A DNA stretch of 25,567 nt from a virus (lineage: Duplodnaviria > Heunggongvirae > Uroviricota > Caudoviricetes), in IMG/VR virus record IMGVR_UViG_2925914267_000006, positions 1-25,567 of that record. One strand, written 5' to 3'. Below, piece by piece: positions 8,555 through 21,899 of this stretch (position 1 is its first letter; each line of letters starts with the position of its first letter). The notes under the pieces are model-generated. The model made no database searches. It saw nothing but the letters and a program-made list of their open reading frames with translations, and was not told the DNA's origin. The position numbers were made by a program, and so were the translations under genes.

Positions 8555-9013
8555 TACGCCTCCTGCTTGTCGCGCAGCAGCTGAAACTCGCAGCTCTGTG
8601 GAATAGTCAGGTGGCAACCAATATTCATCGCCCAGGCTTCAACCTTACACAGGAAGACATACATCTCTCCGGTATCAAGATCGGAGGTATGGCGTAACGA
8701 CTGGATAGTGGTGATATCACCGGTTACGACATCAACCAGGTCTTTGGTTTCATAACCGAGATATGTGTGTTTGAGAGCATCTTTTACCCAAGCTGGAGTG
8801 GCGAACGTTTTACCCTTGCTGATGAGGTATTCACTGATTTCGCTGTACCACATGTGGCTGAGTGCATTCTGGGAAAGACTGCGTCTCTCGCGCCACGGTT
8901 TAAGCACCATGCGAAAGCATTTGCCGTCCTCCAGATAAGGCTGGATCTGCCGACCAATAGCGGTGAAGTTTGAGGTGTACTGGCAATAGCGGACACTACC
9001 ATTTGTTCTTTTT

Positions 9014-9832
9014 TTAAGCAGCCATCTGATGATATTTTTCCCTGAAGGCTGCCGGGGAGATATTCCCCAGACGAGAGTGACGACGCTGACGATTGTAGAA
9101 AATCTCAATGTATTCCCGTATTACTGAGATGGCTTCATCCCGGTTATTAAAACGATAGTGGCTCAGGCTCTCATTTTTCAGCGTTCCCCAGAAGCTTTCC
9201 ATCGGAGCGTTGTCGTAACAGTTACCTTTACGCGACATTGATGTTTTCAGACCAAACTGCTCCTGTATGACCCGGTAATCGTATGCGCAGTACTGTGAAC
9301 CTCGATCAGAGTGGTGGATTAGCCCGGCAGGTGGGCGCTGGCTCCTGAGCGCCATAAACAGGGCTTTACCTGTCAGCTCTTTTGTCATGCGCTCTCCCAT
9401 GGCGTAGCCGACAATTTCGCACGTATAAACATCTTTGATGCCAGCGAGGTACAACCATCCCTCCTGTGTGGCAACATACGTCAGGTCCGCCACCCAGACC
9501 TGATTTGGTGCTGTAGGAGCGAACGTCTGGTTCAGCAGATTTGGCGCAACTGGCAGATTGTGGTTCGAGTTCGTAGTCGCTCTGAACTTGCGTTTCTGCT
9601 TACAGCGTAGCCTTAGCTCCTTACGAAGACGTGCCAGTCGGTCACGACCAACGATGATGCCATTCTCTGCCAGCTCCGTCTGGAGCCGCCGGGTTCCATA
9701 TGTTTCGCGAGTGCGGATATGTGCCACCTTAATCTCCAGTTTTAGCCGCTCATCACTTTGTTTTCTGTCTGAGGGTTCATGCTGTACCCAGTTGTAATAA
9801 CCGCTCCTGGATACACCAAATACCTGACACAT
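9014..9832 (-). CDS. IS3-family transposase OrfB (DDE integrase core)
   Basis: 272-aa ORF with typical IS3-family OrfB motifs (WVADLTYV, HHSDRGSQY, YDNAPMESFWGTLK). Confidence 0.88.
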   Translation of the reverse strand: MCQVFGVSRSGYYNWVQHEPSDRKQSDERLKLEIKVAHIRTRETYGTRRLQTELAENGIIVGRDRLARLRKELRLRCKQKRKFRATTNSNHNLPVAPNLLNQTFAPTAPNQVWVADLTYVATQEGWLYLAGIKDVYTCEIVGYAMGERMTKELTGKALFMALRSQRPPAGLIHHSDRGSQYCAYDYRVIQEQFGLKTSMSRKGNCYDNAPMESFWGTLKNESLSHYRFNNRDEAISVIREYIEIFYNRQRRHSRLGNISPAAFREKYHQMAA

Positions 9833-9867
9833 CGCTTCAATGGGAAATTGTTGTCGCCATTGTTCGA

Positions 9868-10170
9868 TTAACGCGTATTTTTCAGCGACTCCTGTGCAAA
9901 ATACGCTGTTGCTTTTTTTAATATATCTCGCTCAAGGCGAGCTTCATTTAACGCCTTACGCAGTTGCAGAATTTCAGATTCCAGTTCAGCCACCGTGCGG
10001 GAACCAGGAGTACCGAGCCCTTTTCTGGCGGCGGTAACCCATTGCCCTAAAGTGCCTTCAGGAAGAGATAATCGGGAAGCGCCTTCACTGATCGAAAGTT
10101 GATTTTCAAGAACCGTTCTGACAGCTTCGGCTTTGAACTCTTTAGAGTAACGTTGGGTTTTTCTGCTCAT
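9868..10170 (-). CDS. IS3-family transposase OrfA (HTH plus leucine zipper)
   Basis: 100-aa ORF with an HTH and the C-terminal LERDILKKATAYFAQE zipper typical of IS3-family OrfA; an A AAA AAG slippery site lies near its 3' end. Confidence 0.85.
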   Translation of the reverse strand: MSRKTQRYSKEFKAEAVRTVLENQLSISEGASRLSLPEGTLGQWVTAARKGLGTPGSRTVAELESEILQLRKALNEARLERDILKKATAYFAQESLKNTR

Positions 10171-10309
10171 TATTAGCTCCTTCTGATGCCATTCTATTTC
10201 AGGAAGGAGTGTCCGTTAAACTCAGGCTACCTCAGTTACCGCGATGCAGTTTGATGCCATCTTGTGGGAAGTTCACGCTTCACCTCCGCAGAGATCAAAC
10301 GCTGGATGC

Positions 10310-10420
10310 AAAAAAACGCAGGTGCATTTCTGCATCTGTGGCAAGGCGAGGAGTTCAACTTGTGGTCGCATATAATTTCCCAATCATATGCGCAGAAGTC
10401 ACCGCAGGGTGTTCAGGCCA
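10310..10420 (-). repeat. Copy A of a roughly 110-bp repeat with two conserved boxes; contains a minus-strand rho-independent terminator
   Basis: Box 1 (aggtgcatttctgcatctgtg) and box 2 (gcgcagaagtcaccg..gttcaggc) are about 50 nt apart. On the minus strand box 1 forms a stem with a GAAA loop followed by a run of seven T, just upstream of the ninB-like start. Confidence 0.55.
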
Positions 10421-10446
10421 ACGGTGACGGTATTATTGCTTATTGA

Positions 10447-10698
10447 TTATGATTTTTCAATTTCATCAATAACCTTGTGATAGACAATACCAGAAAGGCC
10501 AACAGACAGTGGATGTTCATGAAATATTGGCTCATTTGCATAAACCCAATGCCCGACAAATTCTTCTGGGCTTGATATGTATAACTCACGAAGAAAATGG
10601 AGATCCCTCTCTACAACTAATTTCGTATCGTCCAAGAGCGCTGCATTTACGCTAGTTTTATGGCTGTGCATTAATTTACATTTGGTGAAGGACATCAT
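10447..10698 (-). CDS. Hypothetical 83-aa protein
   Basis: ORF downstream of the Bro-N-like gene on the same strand; no family recognised. Confidence 0.4.
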   Translation of the reverse strand: MMSFTKCKLMHSHKTSVNAALLDDTKLVVERDLHFLRELYISSPEEFVGHWVYANEPIFHEHPLSVGLSGIVYHKVIDEIEKS

Positions 10699-10757
10699 GG
10701 CAAAAGCTCCTTTTTCTTATGAATCCATATGTTAGCTAAATTGGAGAGACACAGTAG

Positions 10758-11375
10758 CTAACGTTGTTTAATAACATTCTGACGCAAATGTGGCAATTGT
10801 ACTCGACTCCACTTATCATCCTGCCACGGCTGGAATTTTACATGTGCCGTTTCTCTGGCGAGGATTGCTCGCGCTCTGGTGAGTATCTGGGGATATTCTT
10901 GCTCGATGGAAGTGAAGCGACCAGCTTCACGATGCTCCGCAACCTGAAGAAGAGGAGTAACGTTCTGGCAGGCGGTTAACATCGCATCCCCAGCTCGCCA
11001 TAACCAAGCAAGTGTGCAAAGTTCGTTATCAGTGAATTGTTTTGTGATCGGGGATTGTTGAACTTCTCGATCGAGAATATCCAGAACCCAGCGGCGGAAC
11101 TCTTTGGCTACAGGAGTTCGTGCAAACATGGCGATCAAATGAGCTCCGCGAAGGCTAAATACTCGAGACTCCTGCATTCCACGAGGGGTGGTCACTTTGA
11201 CCACCCTTGTCATCATATCTGTAAATTCATCTGAGTGACGAGAGTAAATGCGCTGAACTGCTTTATCGTCCGCATATTCCAGAGCTAAACCAACTTCAGT
11301 GGCAGTAAGCCAAATTCTGTTATTGTGGCAAATTGGGGTAAACGTCGTTTTGTGGAATGCTAATTGAGTAGTCAT
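10758..11375 (-). CDS. Bro-N / antirepressor-like DNA-binding protein
   Basis: The N-terminal pattern (FHKTTFTPICHNNRIWLTATEVGLALEYADDKAVQRIY...RVFSLRGAHLIAMFARTPVAKEFRRWVLDIL) resembles Bro-N domains of phage antirepressors. Family assignment is from recall only. Confidence 0.55.
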   Translation of the reverse strand: MTTQLAFHKTTFTPICHNNRIWLTATEVGLALEYADDKAVQRIYSRHSDEFTDMMTRVVKVTTPRGMQESRVFSLRGAHLIAMFARTPVAKEFRRWVLDILDREVQQSPITKQFTDNELCTLAWLWRAGDAMLTACQNVTPLLQVAEHREAGRFTSIEQEYPQILTRARAILARETAHVKFQPWQDDKWSRVQLPHLRQNVIKQR

Positions 11376-11530
11376 AGTTTCACCTCATCAGGTTAACCAT
11401 CACCACCAACGACGCCAATCGACTGGTGGTGAACTGTGCAAGGTTGGCGTAACCGGCTACTCAAATCCGGCGCTCCCGAAGAAGCCCTCACACAGCCCAC
11501 CATAATTTGGGCGTAGCCGTGCTTAGCGCA

Positions 11531-11552
11531 TAAAAAAACCGCTTAACGCGGT
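11531..11552 (-). terminator. Weak minus-strand terminator candidate upstream of the Bro-N-like gene
   Basis: On the minus strand ccgc-gttaa-gcgg is followed by a run of seven T; the stem is short. Confidence 0.3.
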
Positions 11553-11638
11553 ATGCGTTGAGTAGTATTCCGGGACGCCAATCCCGTGTGCCGATTTTGC
11601 GGCAACGCACAGAATATATCCCCAGATAAATCATGTCG

Positions 11639-11728
11639 TCAACCCCAGTAAATGGACACCATGATGATCACAGCCATAGCTGCTACAACAGTTACAACTA
11701 CCTCAGGCCAAAACATAACGATTTCCAT
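11639..11728 (-). CDS. Possible 29-aa hydrophobic peptide (MEIVMFWPEVVVTVVAAMAVIIMVSIYWG)
   Basis: Single predicted transmembrane helix with an AGGTGA-like ribosome-binding site close to the ATG. It is the 3' end of an 82-aa GTG-initiated ORF and may not be coding. Confidence 0.3.
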   Translation of the reverse strand: MEIVMFWPEVVVTVVAAMAVIIMVSIYWG

Positions 11729-11794
11729 ATCACCTTTAGCCGCCAGACGAATAGAGACTCCCAATTCTGGCTGTCGAAGTAAAACACCGAATGT

Positions 11795-11902
11795 AAAAAA
11801 TCGTAGGTGCATTTCTGCATCTGTGAATGGAGAAGATAGGTTGGATTGTATGTGCGCATAAACGTCCCCGTTTAGCGCAGAAGTCACCGGAGTTGTTCAG
11901 GC
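11795..11902 (-). repeat. Copy B of the same two-box repeat with a minus-strand terminator
   Basis: Box 1 and box 2 are conserved with copy A at the same ~50-nt spacing while the intervening sequence differs. The minus-strand stem is followed by a run of six T. Confidence 0.55.
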
Positions 11903-11986
11903 TCCGGCTTATTAATATTGCCTACTTACAATTAATTTTTCAACTGTTAGAAACTTATAATTAGCTGTCTCTTTGTAACTATCAAT

Positions 11987-12217
11987 TTAATTATTTTTCT
12001 TTAACTTGAAATTTCTTCCCATTGCTAGTGTTCTTCGAAGATTCGAATCATAAGCTGGTTGATAATATCTATCATAAAAATCCTTAATTGTCTGATGGTA
12101 AGTATCCAGCATCAAACCATAAAACCCCATGACCTTAAGATAATCCACCAAGGGAAATAAATAATCATCAGTCTGAACATCAGTATCAACATTATTTTTT
12201 TTGTTTTTTAACTTCAA
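11987..12217 (-). CDS. 76-aa ORF overlapping the 3' end of the STAND NTPase gene; possibly its frameshifted C-terminal extension
   Basis: TTG-initiated ORF in another frame relative to the NTPase; the two frames cross within an 8-nt A tract (T8 on the plus strand at about 12191-12198). AT-rich by eye. Confidence 0.35.
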   Translation of the reverse strand: MKLKNKKNNVDTDVQTDDYLFPLVDYLKVMGFYGLMLDTYHQTIKDFYDRYYQPAYDSNLRRTLAMGRNFKLKKNN

Positions 12218-13919
12218 ATTTGTATAAGTTTAACTCACCCTTATCCATCGTGCATGAAAAAAGGTCGTCAAAAATCAAATCAATTTTTGTCATAGGAACT
12301 CGTTCTTTTCCAGACATTATAGGTAGAATATCAATACCTAAGAGCGAACCTAATACAAAGTCGTAATGAAGCGAAATCACTGAGTCATTCGATGTCGAGT
12401 TGCCTTTGATAAATACTCTACTTAGTGCCGAGTCAAAAACATTCTCAACTCTCTCTCTCGTCATGTTTGCGACATCTACAACCCCCATATCACGAGAAGC
12501 TTTTATTGTGATTTCATCTATAAATGCTTTGGAATCTAGTGAATGTAAAAACAACATGAAGTTATCTAACTGTTCAGAGCATTTAATAGCCACCATAAGA
12601 TTTTCGTATATATCTTTTTTATACTCAATCGGTAAATTTGCTACCGCAAAAGCAGCATAAAATTCTTGCACTGATTTATGCAGAAAAACATACCTATTAT
12701 TTCCCTCAGGTTGGATAAGGCAAGTTATCTCAATAAGATCATCTATAAAGTTTGATGCATCTTCTTTAAGATAACCTTCTGTTTCAATAGCATCTTCAGC
12801 ATATCTAAGCAACTCCTCTCCCCAAAACTCAAATTTCTCCTCAATCAGTGCGTTATAGCAAATAGCTGAAAAACACAATTTAGCTTTTTCACCAATAATG
12901 TTTGATTTTTTCTCGCGCGTATATACTTTTATTTTATCATGCCTTGCATATAAGGTGTCAAAGAGGCTTCGATAAAACTCTATTATATTATTTGGAATAT
13001 CATTCATATAAGGATAACAATAATACAAAAGAGTAACTAAAATTGGATTGCAAATAGTTCCCTCAAGTTCTTCTTTATCACATAGTAAATCCGCCAAGAC
13101 TTTAAACGAGGCATCACTACTTGAGAATCTGTCATTTTTCGATAAAGAATGAAGAATACAAATCTTATCAGAAATATTTAGCTTATCTATAAAAATATTA
13201 TACACATCAGTAGTATAACATATATCTGTATTTGGTCTCGTTGTTGCGATAATTGGTGTGTTAAAATGATAATGAATGTTTTTTATTTCATTCATCATCA
13301 TAGTTCGCTCTTCATGTTTAACCTCATCAAATCCATCCAACATTAAAACGACTCTTTGGGATTGCAGTAATATTTTCAAGCTATCCTCTGAACACCCCAC
13401 ACCAAATGAATTAAGAATGTCTGCCAGATAAGCAATAATATTTGCATTCTTCACCCTTCTTAATTCAATAAAAAAAGGTATCCGTTCTGATTTTTTTATT
13501 TCCTCGCTAAACAACTTGCGTAAAATAGTACTTTTCCCTTGCCCCGCTATACCGACTATATTTACAATACCATGAAATGGTAAAGTGACCCCATCTTTTA
13601 TAACGACCTTGTCTTTATTAGATGCCACCTCAACAGTTAACGGATAATAAATATCATCTAAAAAAATATCATAATCAGCGTTGTGCAAAGTTCTCATTTT
13701 CAGAGATGGTAGCACATGCTTTCTTAAATAATTTTCTCTCCCGAGGGGATCATTTAATTGTTCGAGTATAACCTTGCCTTCATCTAGGTCCCTAGCCCAA
13801 GGTTTAGAGAGCAATACTTCTGTTATTTTTTCCGCAGCTTTTCCTACTGTGCTATTAATAATAGTCGCAAGAAACTCATCCATTTTTTCACCACATTCAT
13901 TAACCAATACGTGGTGCAT
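12192..13919 (-). CDS. STAND-class P-loop NTPase (NACHT-like), candidate antiphage or abortive-infection protein
   Basis: Walker A (GIAGQGKST), Walker B of NACHT type (VVLMLDGFDEV) and a TTRP motif (IIATTRP) at NACHT-like spacing. Both the gene and its flanks look AT-rich by eye. The start is uncertain: ATG at 13919 or 13883, with the track's TTG at 13940. Confidence 0.7.
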   Translation of the reverse strand: MHHVLVNECGEKMDEFLATIINSTVGKAAEKITEVLLSKPWARDLDEGKVILEQLNDPLGRENYLRKHVLPSLKMRTLHNADYDIFLDDIYYPLTVEVASNKDKVVIKDGVTLPFHGIVNIVGIAGQGKSTILRKLFSEEIKKSERIPFFIELRRVKNANIIAYLADILNSFGVGCSEDSLKILLQSQRVVLMLDGFDEVKHEERTMMMNEIKNIHYHFNTPIIATTRPNTDICYTTDVYNIFIDKLNISDKICILHSLSKNDRFSSSDASFKVLADLLCDKEELEGTICNPILVTLLYYCYPYMNDIPNNIIEFYRSLFDTLYARHDKIKVYTREKKSNIIGEKAKLCFSAICYNALIEEKFEFWGEELLRYAEDAIETEGYLKEDASNFIDDLIEITCLIQPEGNNRYVFLHKSVQEFYAAFAVANLPIEYKKDIYENLMVAIKCSEQLDNFMLFLHSLDSKAFIDEITIKASRDMGVVDVANMTRERVENVFDSALSRVFIKGNSTSNDSVISLHYDFVLGSLLGIDILPIMSGKERVPMTKIDLIFDDLFSCTMDKGELNLYKFEVKKQKK

Positions 13920-14271
13920 TCTTACAAGACTCAGTAACAATTGTCAATCATAGGTTTTCGCATGATTGCAAAACGCCATAAACAATTGTAGCACCATAAT
14001 TTTAAACACTATATAATATACAACCTTCCTACAAGCATTCAGTACATCGCTTAATCACAGGGCTTGAATATATAGTAAGGAATCGATATTAATCACCTCA
14101 TCTACTTTAAACATCTTACACACCTATAATTTATAATAGTCAACACGAGGTCATCATATTAAACATGCAATTACAAACATTCATTTTTATATAAATTTTC
14201 ATGATTTAACCGTAGAGCGACGGTAATAAATTTCATATACAAGGATTTAAGCTCCCATACGTTTTCTATTA

Positions 14272-14451
14272 TTAAAAATAACATACCGTTCGCCAGACCT
14301 TACCATCAATGACCAGGATTCCTGCCCGCGCCATTTTTGCCGCAGCCTGATTTATGCTGGTTAATGTCACACCTGTTGTCGCAGCAACGTCCGGCGCACA
14401 GAAGCTCTTGTGCGTCCCCAGGTAATGAATAATTGCTTCTTTTCCCGTCAT
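14272..14451 (-). pseudogene. ren: Truncated ren (59 codons, lambda Ren is 96 aa)
   Basis: Hand translation gives MTGKEAIIHYLGTHKSFCAPDVAATTGVTLTSINQAAAKMARAGILVIDGKVWRTVCYF*, matching the N-terminal part of lambda Ren. The ATG overlaps the P stop, and the frame ends where the AT-rich island begins. Confidence 0.75.
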
Positions 14452-20685: not shown

Positions 20686-21012
20686 ATGACTAAAAATACT
20701 CGTTTTTCCCCCGAAGTCCGTCAGCGGGCGATTCGTATGGTTCTGGAAAGTCAGGATGAATATGACTCACAGTGGGCGGCAATTTGTTCCATTGCCCCAA
20801 AGATTGGCTGTACGCCGGAGACTCTGCGTGTCTGGGTTCGCCAGCATGAGCGGGATACCGGGGGCGGTGATGGTGGGCTCACCAGTGCTGAACGTCAGCG
20901 TCTGAAAGAGCTGGAACGTGAAAATCGTGAACTGCGCCGCAGTAACGATATCCTTCGCCAGGCTTCCGCTTATTTTGCGAAGGCGGAGTTCGACCGCCTC
21001 TGGAAAAAATGA
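20686..21012 (+). CDS. IS629 OrfA
   Basis: 108-aa protein [42 protein letters not shown]... matching IS629-group OrfA as recalled. Confidence 0.88.
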
Positions 21013-21899
21013 TGCCACTGCTGGATAAGCTGCGTGAGCAGTACGGGGTCGGACCGGTATGCAGCGAACTGCATATTGCCCCGTCAACGTATTACCATTG
21101 TCAGCAACAGCGACATCATCCGGATAAACGCAGTGCCCGTGCGCAGCACGACGACTGGCTGAAGAGAGAGATACAGCGCGTATACGATGAAAATCATCAG
21201 GTGTACGGTGTGCGTAAAGTCTGGCGTCAGTTGTTACGGGAAGGAATCAGGGTAGCCAGATGTACAGTGGCGCGCCTCATGGCGGTTATGGGACTTGCCG
21301 GTGTTCTCCGGGGTAAAAAGGTCCGCACTACCGTCAGCCGGAAAGCCGTTGCCGCAGGCGACCGCGTAAACCGTCAGTTTGTGGCAGAACGACCTGACCA
21401 GCTGTGGGTGGCTGATTTTACTTACGTCAGCACATGGCAGGGCTTCGTCTATGTGGCGTTTATCATTGATGTGTTTGCCGGATACATCGTGGGGTGGCGG
21501 GTCTCATCGTCTATGGAAACGACATTCGTGCTGGATGCGCTGGAGCAGGCGTTGTGGGCCCGTCGTCCGTCTGGCACCATCCATCACAGCGATAAAGGCT
21601 CTCAGTATGTGTCACTGGCCTATACGGAGCGACTAAAAGAAGCCGGATTACTGGCATCAACAGGGAGTACAGGCGACTCGTATGACAACGCGATGGCTGA
21701 GAGCATCAATGGTCTTTACAAAGCGGAGGTAATACACCGTAAGAGCTGGAAAAACCGTGCAGAAGTGGAACTGGCCACACTAACGTGGGTGGACTGGTAT
21801 AACAATCGACGATTGCTGGGAAGGCTGGGCCATACTCCTCCGGCAGAAGCAGAAAAAGCTTATTATGCTTCCATCGGAAACGATGATCTGGCAGCCTGA
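21009..21899 (+). CDS. IS629 OrfB (DDE transposase core)
   Basis: 296-aa protein with IS3-family OrfB motifs ([31 protein letters not shown]). Confidence 0.88.

Follow-up and report, generated by a model that had tools for sequence, protein, structure and literature searches.

What does a block of three small open reading frames (ORFs), set between two copies of a repeat, do in a lambdoid prophage? The question is raised by positions 10,447 to 11,728 of a 25,567-nucleotide (nt) stretch of Caudoviricetes DNA (IMG/VR record IMGVR_UViG_2925914267_000006, positions 1 to 25,567), the whole of which is called the window here. The original prediction, made from the sequence letters and their ORFs, treated a 205-amino-acid (aa) protein, an 83-aa ORF and a 29-aa hydrophobic peptide as one cargo block with no known function. 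That description was incomplete, because it left out a promoter, a terminator and two RNA genes, all located in 11376-11645. With these elements included, the core of the block, 11642..10758 on the minus strand, is very probably an immI-type, RNA-controlled antirepressor cassette in an accessory hotspot between ren and ybcN. The cassette is of a type already known from P1 immI and Gifsy-1 isrK, not a new kind of system, and a C4/IsrK-controlled antirepressor cassette now takes the place of a block with no assigned function. The three ORFs were found where the original prediction had placed them, all on the minus strand:

10698..10447, minus strand: 83-aa ORF, an open reading frame
11375..10758, minus strand: 205-aa ORF (ant), with Bro-N and P22_AR_C domains
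11728..11639, minus strand: 29-aa ORF, an open reading frame

Two RNA genes and a promoter precede ant

The gap of ~250-260 nt between the 29-aa ORF and ant (11376-11645) is not spacer. It is composed of a promoter, a terminator and two RNA genes recognized by Rfam, followed by the ant leader, with these features:

11613..11642, minus strand: P_isrK, promoter-like site TTGACG-18-TATATT, the best sigma-70-like site of the region (10/12 matches)
11532..11619, minus strand: IsrK small RNA (sRNA) / c4-a1b1 element, from Rfam, two hairpins plus intrinsic terminator
Stem 11552..11538, U-run to about 11531, minus strand: IsrK intrinsic terminator, from a terminator scan
11583..11575, minus strand: decoy a1, GAUUGGCGU, in the loop of the second IsrK hairpin
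11565..11558, minus strand: decoy b1, CUACUCAA, just 3' of the second IsrK hairpin
11422..11507, minus strand: C4 antisense RNA, Rfam RF01695, terminal stem and two hairpins in RNAfold
11464..11457, minus strand: C4 site b', UUGAGUAG, in the loop of hairpin 2
11450..11442, minus strand: C4 site a', ACGCCAACC, in the single-stranded stretch 3' of hairpin 2
11364..11420, minus strand: ant leader with the C4 targets, comprising a2, Shine-Dalgarno sequence (SD), AUG and b2
11420..11412, minus strand: target a2, GAUUGGCGU, in the loop of hairpin CACCACC/GGUGGUG
11386..11380, minus strand: ant SD, GAGGUGA, with the AUG at 11375..11373
11371..11364, minus strand: target b2, CUACUCAA, in ant codons 2-4
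11393..11503, minus strand: leader ORF of 36 codons, overlapping C4, the positional equivalent of Gifsy-1 orf45

The C4 match scores 72.4 bits against a gathering threshold (GA) of 45, spans the full-length model (1-87) and has no non-canonical pairs flagged. C4 is co-oriented with ant, and its 3' end lies 46 nt ahead of the ant AUG. The isrK model (RF01394) matches 11604..11532 with 60.7 bits, above its GA of 50, and the overlapping c4-a1b1 match (RF03163, 11619..11567) scores 37.8 bits, below its own GA of 46.7. P_isrK is positioned just upstream of IsrK, collinear with P1c4 of P1 and PisrK of Gifsy-1. No copy of the prophage operator half-site worth noting was found near it.

The targets occur twice. 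Sites a1 and a2 are identical, as are b1 and b2, and they are complementary to a' and b' of C4, respectively. The b':b2 pairing falls within the ribosome footprint of the ant start. The whole 247-nt leader folds far better than shuffled sequences (z = -4.8), and in its minimum free energy structure the central part of IsrK is base-paired to the unpaired 3' portion of the C4 element, the a' region.

The pairing sites covary across the family

Our comparison set comprised 161 loci with a gene for a relative of the 205-aa protein. A C4-plus-leader profile match lies directly upstream of the ant homolog in 67 of the 134 distinct upstream regions, in hosts that include E. coli, Aeromonas, Yersinia pestis, Vibrio, Arsenophonus, Symbiopectobacterium, Haemophilus, Actinobacillus, Mannheimia and others. 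Covariation was scored after aligning 33 distinct loci (E. coli, Aeromonas, Yersinia, Vibrio, Haemophilus and others). Pairing in the a':a2 helix reaches 85.8% in these loci, with a covariation of 0.564 compared to 0.175±0.02 in shuffles, a value reached by 0 of 500; slid controls gave at most 0.085. Double-sided changes in this helix numbered 61, with 14.5 expected. The a1:a' helix behaves in the same way (88.6% paired; covariation 0.586, compared to 0.177 shuffled; 0/500). More than 20 distinct specificities are found, each compensated three ways, for example GAUUGGCAU/AUGCCAACC, GAUUGGUAC/GUACCAACC and GGUUAGCGU/ACGCUAACU.

The b sites were scored locus by locus, because their positions shift. 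The loop of C4 hairpin 2 has a mean of 7.1 and 8.5 contiguous nt complementary to b1 and b2 of its own locus, respectively, whereas the means against b1 and b2 of other loci are 1.9 and 3.9 nt. In most loci b2 overlaps the SD or the start of the ant homolog.

Leaders of the isrK–C4 type were found in 262 phage records, many Shiga toxin (Stx) phages of the Stx1 and Stx2 types among them. In Stx phages the leader lies between ninE and an antirepressor gene.

In two of these phages, VT2-Sakai (1801-2590) and Stx2a_F723 (1801-2746), an isrK–C4-like leader with ~70% identity lies directly after ninE and fronts an antirepressor-like gene upstream of roi. The RNAs are unannotated in both records.

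The cassette is collinear with P1 immI and Gifsy-1 isrK

The immI operon of phages P1 and P7, reportedly described by Citron and Schuster in 1990, has the layout a1 b1 – c4 – a2 b2 – icd – ant1/2 (RF01695, RF03163), and the window matches it in order and spacing. Common to both are the promoter, a1/b1 with a terminator-like hairpin, C4, a2/b2 and the antirepressor gene; the features of the P1 record are P2c4/P1c4, a1, b1, c4 RNA, a2, b2 (on the icd SD), icd and ant1/2. The two sequences are collinear from the -35 hexamer to the start codon, with 74% column identity over 270 nt. P1 c4 is a mature RNA of ~77 nt, cut from its precursor by RNase P, that represses Ant synthesis in vivo, and icd translation is needed for ant expression in P1. 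As in P1 and P7, two free C4 sites pair with duplicated target pairs, and the compensated target variation between relatives resembles the heteroimmunity of P1 and P7. Unlike P1, the window is without icd, its b2 is on ant codons 2-4 instead of the icd SD, and its Ant is of a different family (Bro-N plus P22_AR_C). Likewise, no C1-type operator was recognized at the window promoter, the divergent sim genes are absent, and the element is a lambdoid prophage, in contrast to the plasmid prophage of P1.

The isrK–orf45–anrP–isrJ region of the Salmonella prophage Gifsy-1 (PMC4825925; RF01394) shares the three Rfam elements of the window, which lie ahead of AnrP in an identical order (isrK 79 bits, c4-a1b1 48 bits, C4 69 bits), with isrJ beyond AnrP. 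Because the C4 match lies upstream of AnrP in this same order, the Gifsy-1 'orf45' region corresponds to the C4 region. The a sites of Gifsy-1 are identical to those of the window (GAUUGGCGU / ACGCCAACC), whereas its b site, UCACCG, differs from CUACUCAA. Both cassettes have an IsrK with its own promoter, a leaky IsrK terminator and a leader ORF overlapping the C4 region. The leader-ORF stop overlaps the antirepressor AUGA in Gifsy-1 but lies about 15-17 nt before the ant AUG in the window. Unlike in Gifsy-1, the Rfam search of the window found no isrJ homolog downstream of ant, and AnrP is only marginally similar to the window Ant. The cassette is positioned before ybcN in the window and after Q in Gifsy-1, so the antQ read-out need not apply.

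In Gifsy-1, anrP is transcribed by read-through from the isrK promoter (Hershko-Shalev et al. 2016, PMC4825925). The read-through anrP mRNA is translationally silent, and IsrK supplied in trans raises anrP translation 140-fold by base pairing with the orf45 region (PMC4825925). Gifsy-1 IsrK also binds Hfq and causes growth arrest through the Q antiterminator (PMC4825925). The isrK family (RF01394, no clan) and the c4-a1b1 family (RF03163, clan CL00128) match the same DNA, both in the window (11532-11619, minus strand) and in Gifsy-1 (34240-34329, minus strand). The IsrK paper (PMC4825925) draws no link between IsrK and P1 c4, and a 2025 review (PMC12197685) has IsrK and c4 as separate entries, without cross-reference. 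Since IsrK and P1 a1b1 match the same DNA, what is learned about one system should apply to the other as well.

The immI region of P22, in which ant is under the control of Mnt, Arc and sar, offers a further parallel. There, a P22_AR_C-type antirepressor is silenced in the lysogen partly by a small antisense RNA, sar, which acts at the ant translation start, as is proposed here for C4. Unlike C4, sar is cis-encoded and has no C4-like loops or decoys, and the window is without Mnt or Arc genes.

Ant carries Bro-N and P22 antirepressor domains

The Bro-N-like N terminus read from the sequence was borne out by a hidden Markov model match to Pfam Bro-N (PF02498, 4.7e-10, 40.4 bits against a cut-off of 25.6). 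The protein also matches Pfam P22_AR_C (PF10548, 6e-16, 58.7 bits against a cut-off of 22.4) and PHROG families annotated as anti-repressor Ant (up to 5e-53); searches of NCBIfam and PADLOC returned no match. By its domain content, the 205-aa protein is antirepressor-like. The Ant protein is not conserved along with the RNAs, so the RNA leader is a portable control module that sits ahead of different antirepressor-like genes. The prophage's own repressor is a self-cleaving S24-type protein, and the targets of Ant may therefore be other prophages, or heteroimmune phages that are resident or superinfecting.

A model for RNA-gated expression of Ant

In the model that we propose, the constitutive-looking P_isrK would make a short IsrK sRNA ended by its own terminator, and some transcripts would run past it into C4 and the ant mRNA. 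C4 would pair through a' with a2 and through b' with b2, blocking initiation at ant. As b2 is on ant codons 2-4 beside the AUG, this pairing is expected to keep ribosomes off ant. Because a1 equals a2 and b1 equals b2, IsrK should be able to bind a' and b' and relieve the block. Carrying both target copies, it would either compete for C4, in cis or in trans, or open the cis structure, and so turn Ant on. Ant would then bind and inactivate a phage repressor. The a and b sequences would define immunity specificity, as they do between P1 and P7. We infer the direction of regulation, the RNA processing and the identity of the Ant target; repression by C4 is carried over from P1 and activation by IsrK from Gifsy-1, and by this analogy both would hold in the strain of the window.

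The leader ORF could add a further layer. A hairpin predicted to sequester the ant SD has the stop of this ORF in its 5' arm, so that translational coupling with ant is possible in the window. As a family-wide feature, orf45-like coupling was rejected, since leader-ORF length and end point vary.

Several findings weigh against the cassette working as modeled. The duplex energies at the single locus are modest (-10 to -14 kcal/mol), and three of the four window duplexes are no better than those with shuffled targets (45-62 of 500 shuffles equal them); for this reason the case for pairing rests on covariation. The leader ORF is not conserved in the family (3-47 codons, with varying end points), and with no icd gene present the coupling step of P1 and Gifsy-1 may not apply. 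There is no P1 record among the 89 tblastn matches of the window Ant, which is thus not homologous to P1 Ant, and AnrP matches it with an E value of 0.003 over 59 aa only. A prophage with an S24 self-cleaving repressor has no obvious need for an antirepressor. Finally, the prophage is riddled with insertion sequence (IS) elements, the cassette may be idle, and the model comes from sequence analysis.

Some of these points could also be read as a sign that the RNA control is as described but that the 205-aa protein, as a Bro-N DNA-binding or host-takeover protein, has its target elsewhere, for example in transcription, in defense or in another mobile element. Bro-N is a widespread DNA-binding module with diverse partners, a self-cleaving repressor requires no antirepressor, the protein has no relation to P1 Ant and hardly any to AnrP, and the hotspot is next to a NACHT gene and to PD-lambda-1. 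However, the C-terminal domain is that of the P22 antirepressor (6e-16), and the best PHROG families are annotated as anti-repressor Ant. To our knowledge, C4-type control is tied to antirepressors wherever it has been studied (P1 and Gifsy-1). We consider a non-antirepressor role unlikely.

The block could instead be the decaying remnant of a defective prophage, now idle. An IS600-like element splits ybcN 200 nt away, ren is truncated, other IS elements are present in the window (marked by an ALIL pseudoknot), and of 5426 complete E. coli genomes only 8 contain the block in full, 83-aa gene included. Yet ant is full length, C4 and IsrK score above their Rfam thresholds without broken pairs, and there is no mismatch at the a or b sites. 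Moreover, the cassette core (present in 307 of the 5426 genomes) is 97-100% conserved across more than 100 genomes. Together these features make decay improbable and are in keeping with an intact antirepressor cassette.

The repeats and the genomic setting

The window is 99.7% identical to E. coli 2014C-4135 and represents a DLP12/phage-82-like prophage. Its genes run in the order repressor, cro, ydaT, O, P, truncated ren, a hypothetical gene plus NACHT, the block, orf33-like, ybcN, ninE, ybcO, rusA, ylcG and quuD. The block thus sits between truncated ren and ybcN/ninB and has no counterpart in lambda, as originally noted for the lambda nin region. The flanking repeats were also confirmed. 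Two copies of a ~110-nt direct repeat, R1 and R2, enclose the ORFs at a spacing of 1485 nt (10297-10340 / 11782-11825, 86% identity; 10390-10407 / 11875-11892, 94% identity), and one 21-mer from it has exactly two occurrences in the window against 0 expected by chance.

11782..11907, minus strand: repeat copy R2, a duplicate of the nin-operon leader of phage 82-type phages
10297..10460, minus strand: repeat copy R1, the native leader of ybcN/nin

In phage 82 the nin-operon leader is annotated with a putative promoter, a 29-nt inverted repeat, a ribosome-binding site (RBS) and orf33; the inverted repeat carries the label 'possible regulator-binding site' in that record. R1 has a promoter-like site (10460..10432), the inverted repeat GTCACCG...CGGTGAC and an orf33-like ORF overlapping the ybcN start. 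Alignment with phage 82 (X92588) and phage 4A7 showed that R2 has part of the 29-nt inverted repeat, the RBS and the orf33 start, truncated and fused to module sequence; PGAP (Prokaryotic Genome Annotation Pipeline) annotates this orf33 remnant as a pseudogene in O157:H7. Phages without the cassette have a single copy of the repeat. Sequence comparison thus identifies the repeat as the native leader of the phage 82 nin operon, with R1 still leading into ybcN, and R2 as a second, truncated copy ahead of the cassette.

Both copies have a promoter-like site followed by the inverted repeat (10432-10460, minus strand, and 10402-10428; 11914-11943, minus strand, and 11887-11907). On the plus strand, the repeat hairpins, with a T-rich tail after them, score as terminator-like. 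Fusion of the R2 orf33 start to module sequence creates a 53-aa ORF (11698-11859, minus strand) in another frame, which overlaps the start of the 29-aa ORF and is annotated instead of it in some phage records, such as PhiR26_1.

The surroundings show other insertions. The 5' end of ybcN is interrupted by an IS600-like IS3-family element of 1263 bp (8971-10233; OrfA 100 aa, OrfB 272 aa), the flanks of which match an uninterrupted E. coli copy with 100% identity and share a 4-bp overlap consistent with target-site duplication. An ALIL pseudoknot (RF01497, 121.5 bits, 20967-21083, plus strand), an IS3-family frameshift signal, marks another IS in the prophage. On the other side of the block, a low-GC (27-40%) insertion at 11900-14280 truncates ren. 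It encodes a NACHT/STAND NTPase (12192-13940, minus strand; PF05729, 3e-11), with a small ORF upstream of it, and no PADLOC match was found for the insertion. PhiR26_1 has PD-lambda-1 at this position. The site looks like a defense hotspot, possibly with an undescribed NACHT system.

The 83-aa gene occupies a variable cargo slot

The 83-aa ORF has a strong SD, AAGGAG, 7 nt upstream and matches phrog_9613. No match was found in Pfam, NCBIfam or PADLOC, nor by tblastn against 50,697 phage records, and a word-indexed protein search recovered near-identical E. coli copies only. Exhaustive phmmer searching added five further relatives of 54-80 aa, with 34-59% identity and nine invariant positions, which indicates that the ORF represents a real protein family. 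AlphaFold, run with the family alignment, predicted a confident six-strand β-barrel (predicted local distance difference test, pLDDT, 84), for which no informative structural neighbor was found.

The gene is present in only 6 ant loci. In other lambdoid contigs, which have neither ant nor C4, two relatives of the protein are encoded immediately 5' of NinB or DUF1367. The slot between ant and ybcN (window 10447-10757) holds at least 8 alternative cargo sets, including a 169-aa protein, a HEPN pair with a weak PADLOC PDC-M28A match, a DNA polymerase III theta (HolE) homolog and familyless ORFs. Given homologs that occur without ant or C4 and a slot of variable content, the 83-aa protein is an independent passenger, not a partner of Ant. 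The three ORFs, grouped as one block in the original prediction, accordingly do not form one functional unit.

The 29-aa ORF is a poor candidate for the main function

The 29-aa ORF, MEIVMFWPEVVVTVVAAMAVIIMVSIYWG, is the in-frame tail of an 82-aa ORF starting at GTG and a 57-aa ORF starting at ATG. It corresponds to the C-terminal half of phrog_4612 (57 aa), and its stop is inside the -35 hexamer of the isrK promoter. The peptide is strongly hydrophobic, as first described, with a maximum 15-residue Kyte-Doolittle mean of 3.1. No match was found in NCBIfam or PADLOC, and the peptide was not found in the supplements of two small-ORF surveys (PMC11188072, PMC5597208). Of 13 DNA variants, 12 keep open an ORF of 29-31 codons from the invariant UAAAGGUGAUAUGGAAAUC to UGA, which also persists through an in-frame 6-nt indel. 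The 57-aa and 82-aa extensions were rejected as a conserved unit, as several variants have upstream frame-breaking indels and stops.

The ratio of nonsynonymous to synonymous polymorphism (pN/pS) between the two alleles is 0.7-0.9, which shows no purifying selection and is the worst of the six frames, and the 22 differences are spread 6/9/7 over codon positions. In simulation, an ORF this GT-rich stays open in 53% of cases, and is both open and equally hydrophobic in 6.4% (0.064). Codon 7 carries a nonsense change (TGG→TAG) in the 12 loci of the L038 group as well as in O157:H7. The relatives found in databases are all E. coli-like, and the ORF is absent from the C4 cassettes of Gifsy-1, P1 and Stx phages. 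The ORF could conceivably be translated, and at most it would be a lineage-specific add-on 5' of the cassette.

The peptide was originally likened to small membrane toxins in general form. Size and hydrophobicity do resemble those of type I toxin–antitoxin (TA) peptides (Hok, Ldr, TisB, ZorO, DinQ), but the likeness ends there: the 29-aa ORF has no antisense or complementary sRNA, no purifying selection, no family match, a nonsense allele in a major lineage and no counterpart in the other cassettes. A type I TA relation of C4 or IsrK with the ORF was rejected for want of complementarity. Duplexes of either RNA with the ORF mRNA were no better than shuffles, with a longest match of 6 nt, and no promoter-like site was found on the opposite strand in 11500-11900.

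It is distinctly unlikely that the 29-31-codon ORF is a genuine membrane protein, expressed from the R2 promoter-like site on an mRNA whose 3' end is IsrK, a transcript that would be both message and sRNA precursor. Were this so, the peptide could be an exclusion or toxic protein, a functional analog of the sim superimmunity genes flanking P1 c4; only the ren–ybcN version of the cassette would have gained it, and O157:H7 would since have lost it. Weaker still is the proposal that the peptide is the main function of the block, as a type I-style membrane toxin or an exclusion peptide with the RNAs as its antitoxin or regulator: the open frame, the invariant SD-like GGUGAU and AUG, the hydrophobicity of both alleles with its chance of 0.064, and a G1/T2 codon periodicity confined to this frame speak for it, but the lack of selection, the codon-7 nonsense allele, the missing antisense promoter and complementarity, the E. 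coli-like distribution and an SD set directly against the AUG, with very short spacing, make it very improbable.

Implications for lambdoid and Shiga toxin phages

With the RNA-controlled antirepressor cassette as the most probable identity of the core, an anonymous cargo block becomes a defined device, a second-immunity, RNA-gated antirepressor with exact coordinates for each pairing site. The hypervariable slot between ant and ybcN, beside the NACHT gene, is a useful place to look for new defense and counter-defense genes. The family to which the cassette belongs comprises dozens of distinct, fully compensated a and b specificities, and it is found in many Stx-converting phages, where control of an antirepressor bears on prophage induction and toxin release.

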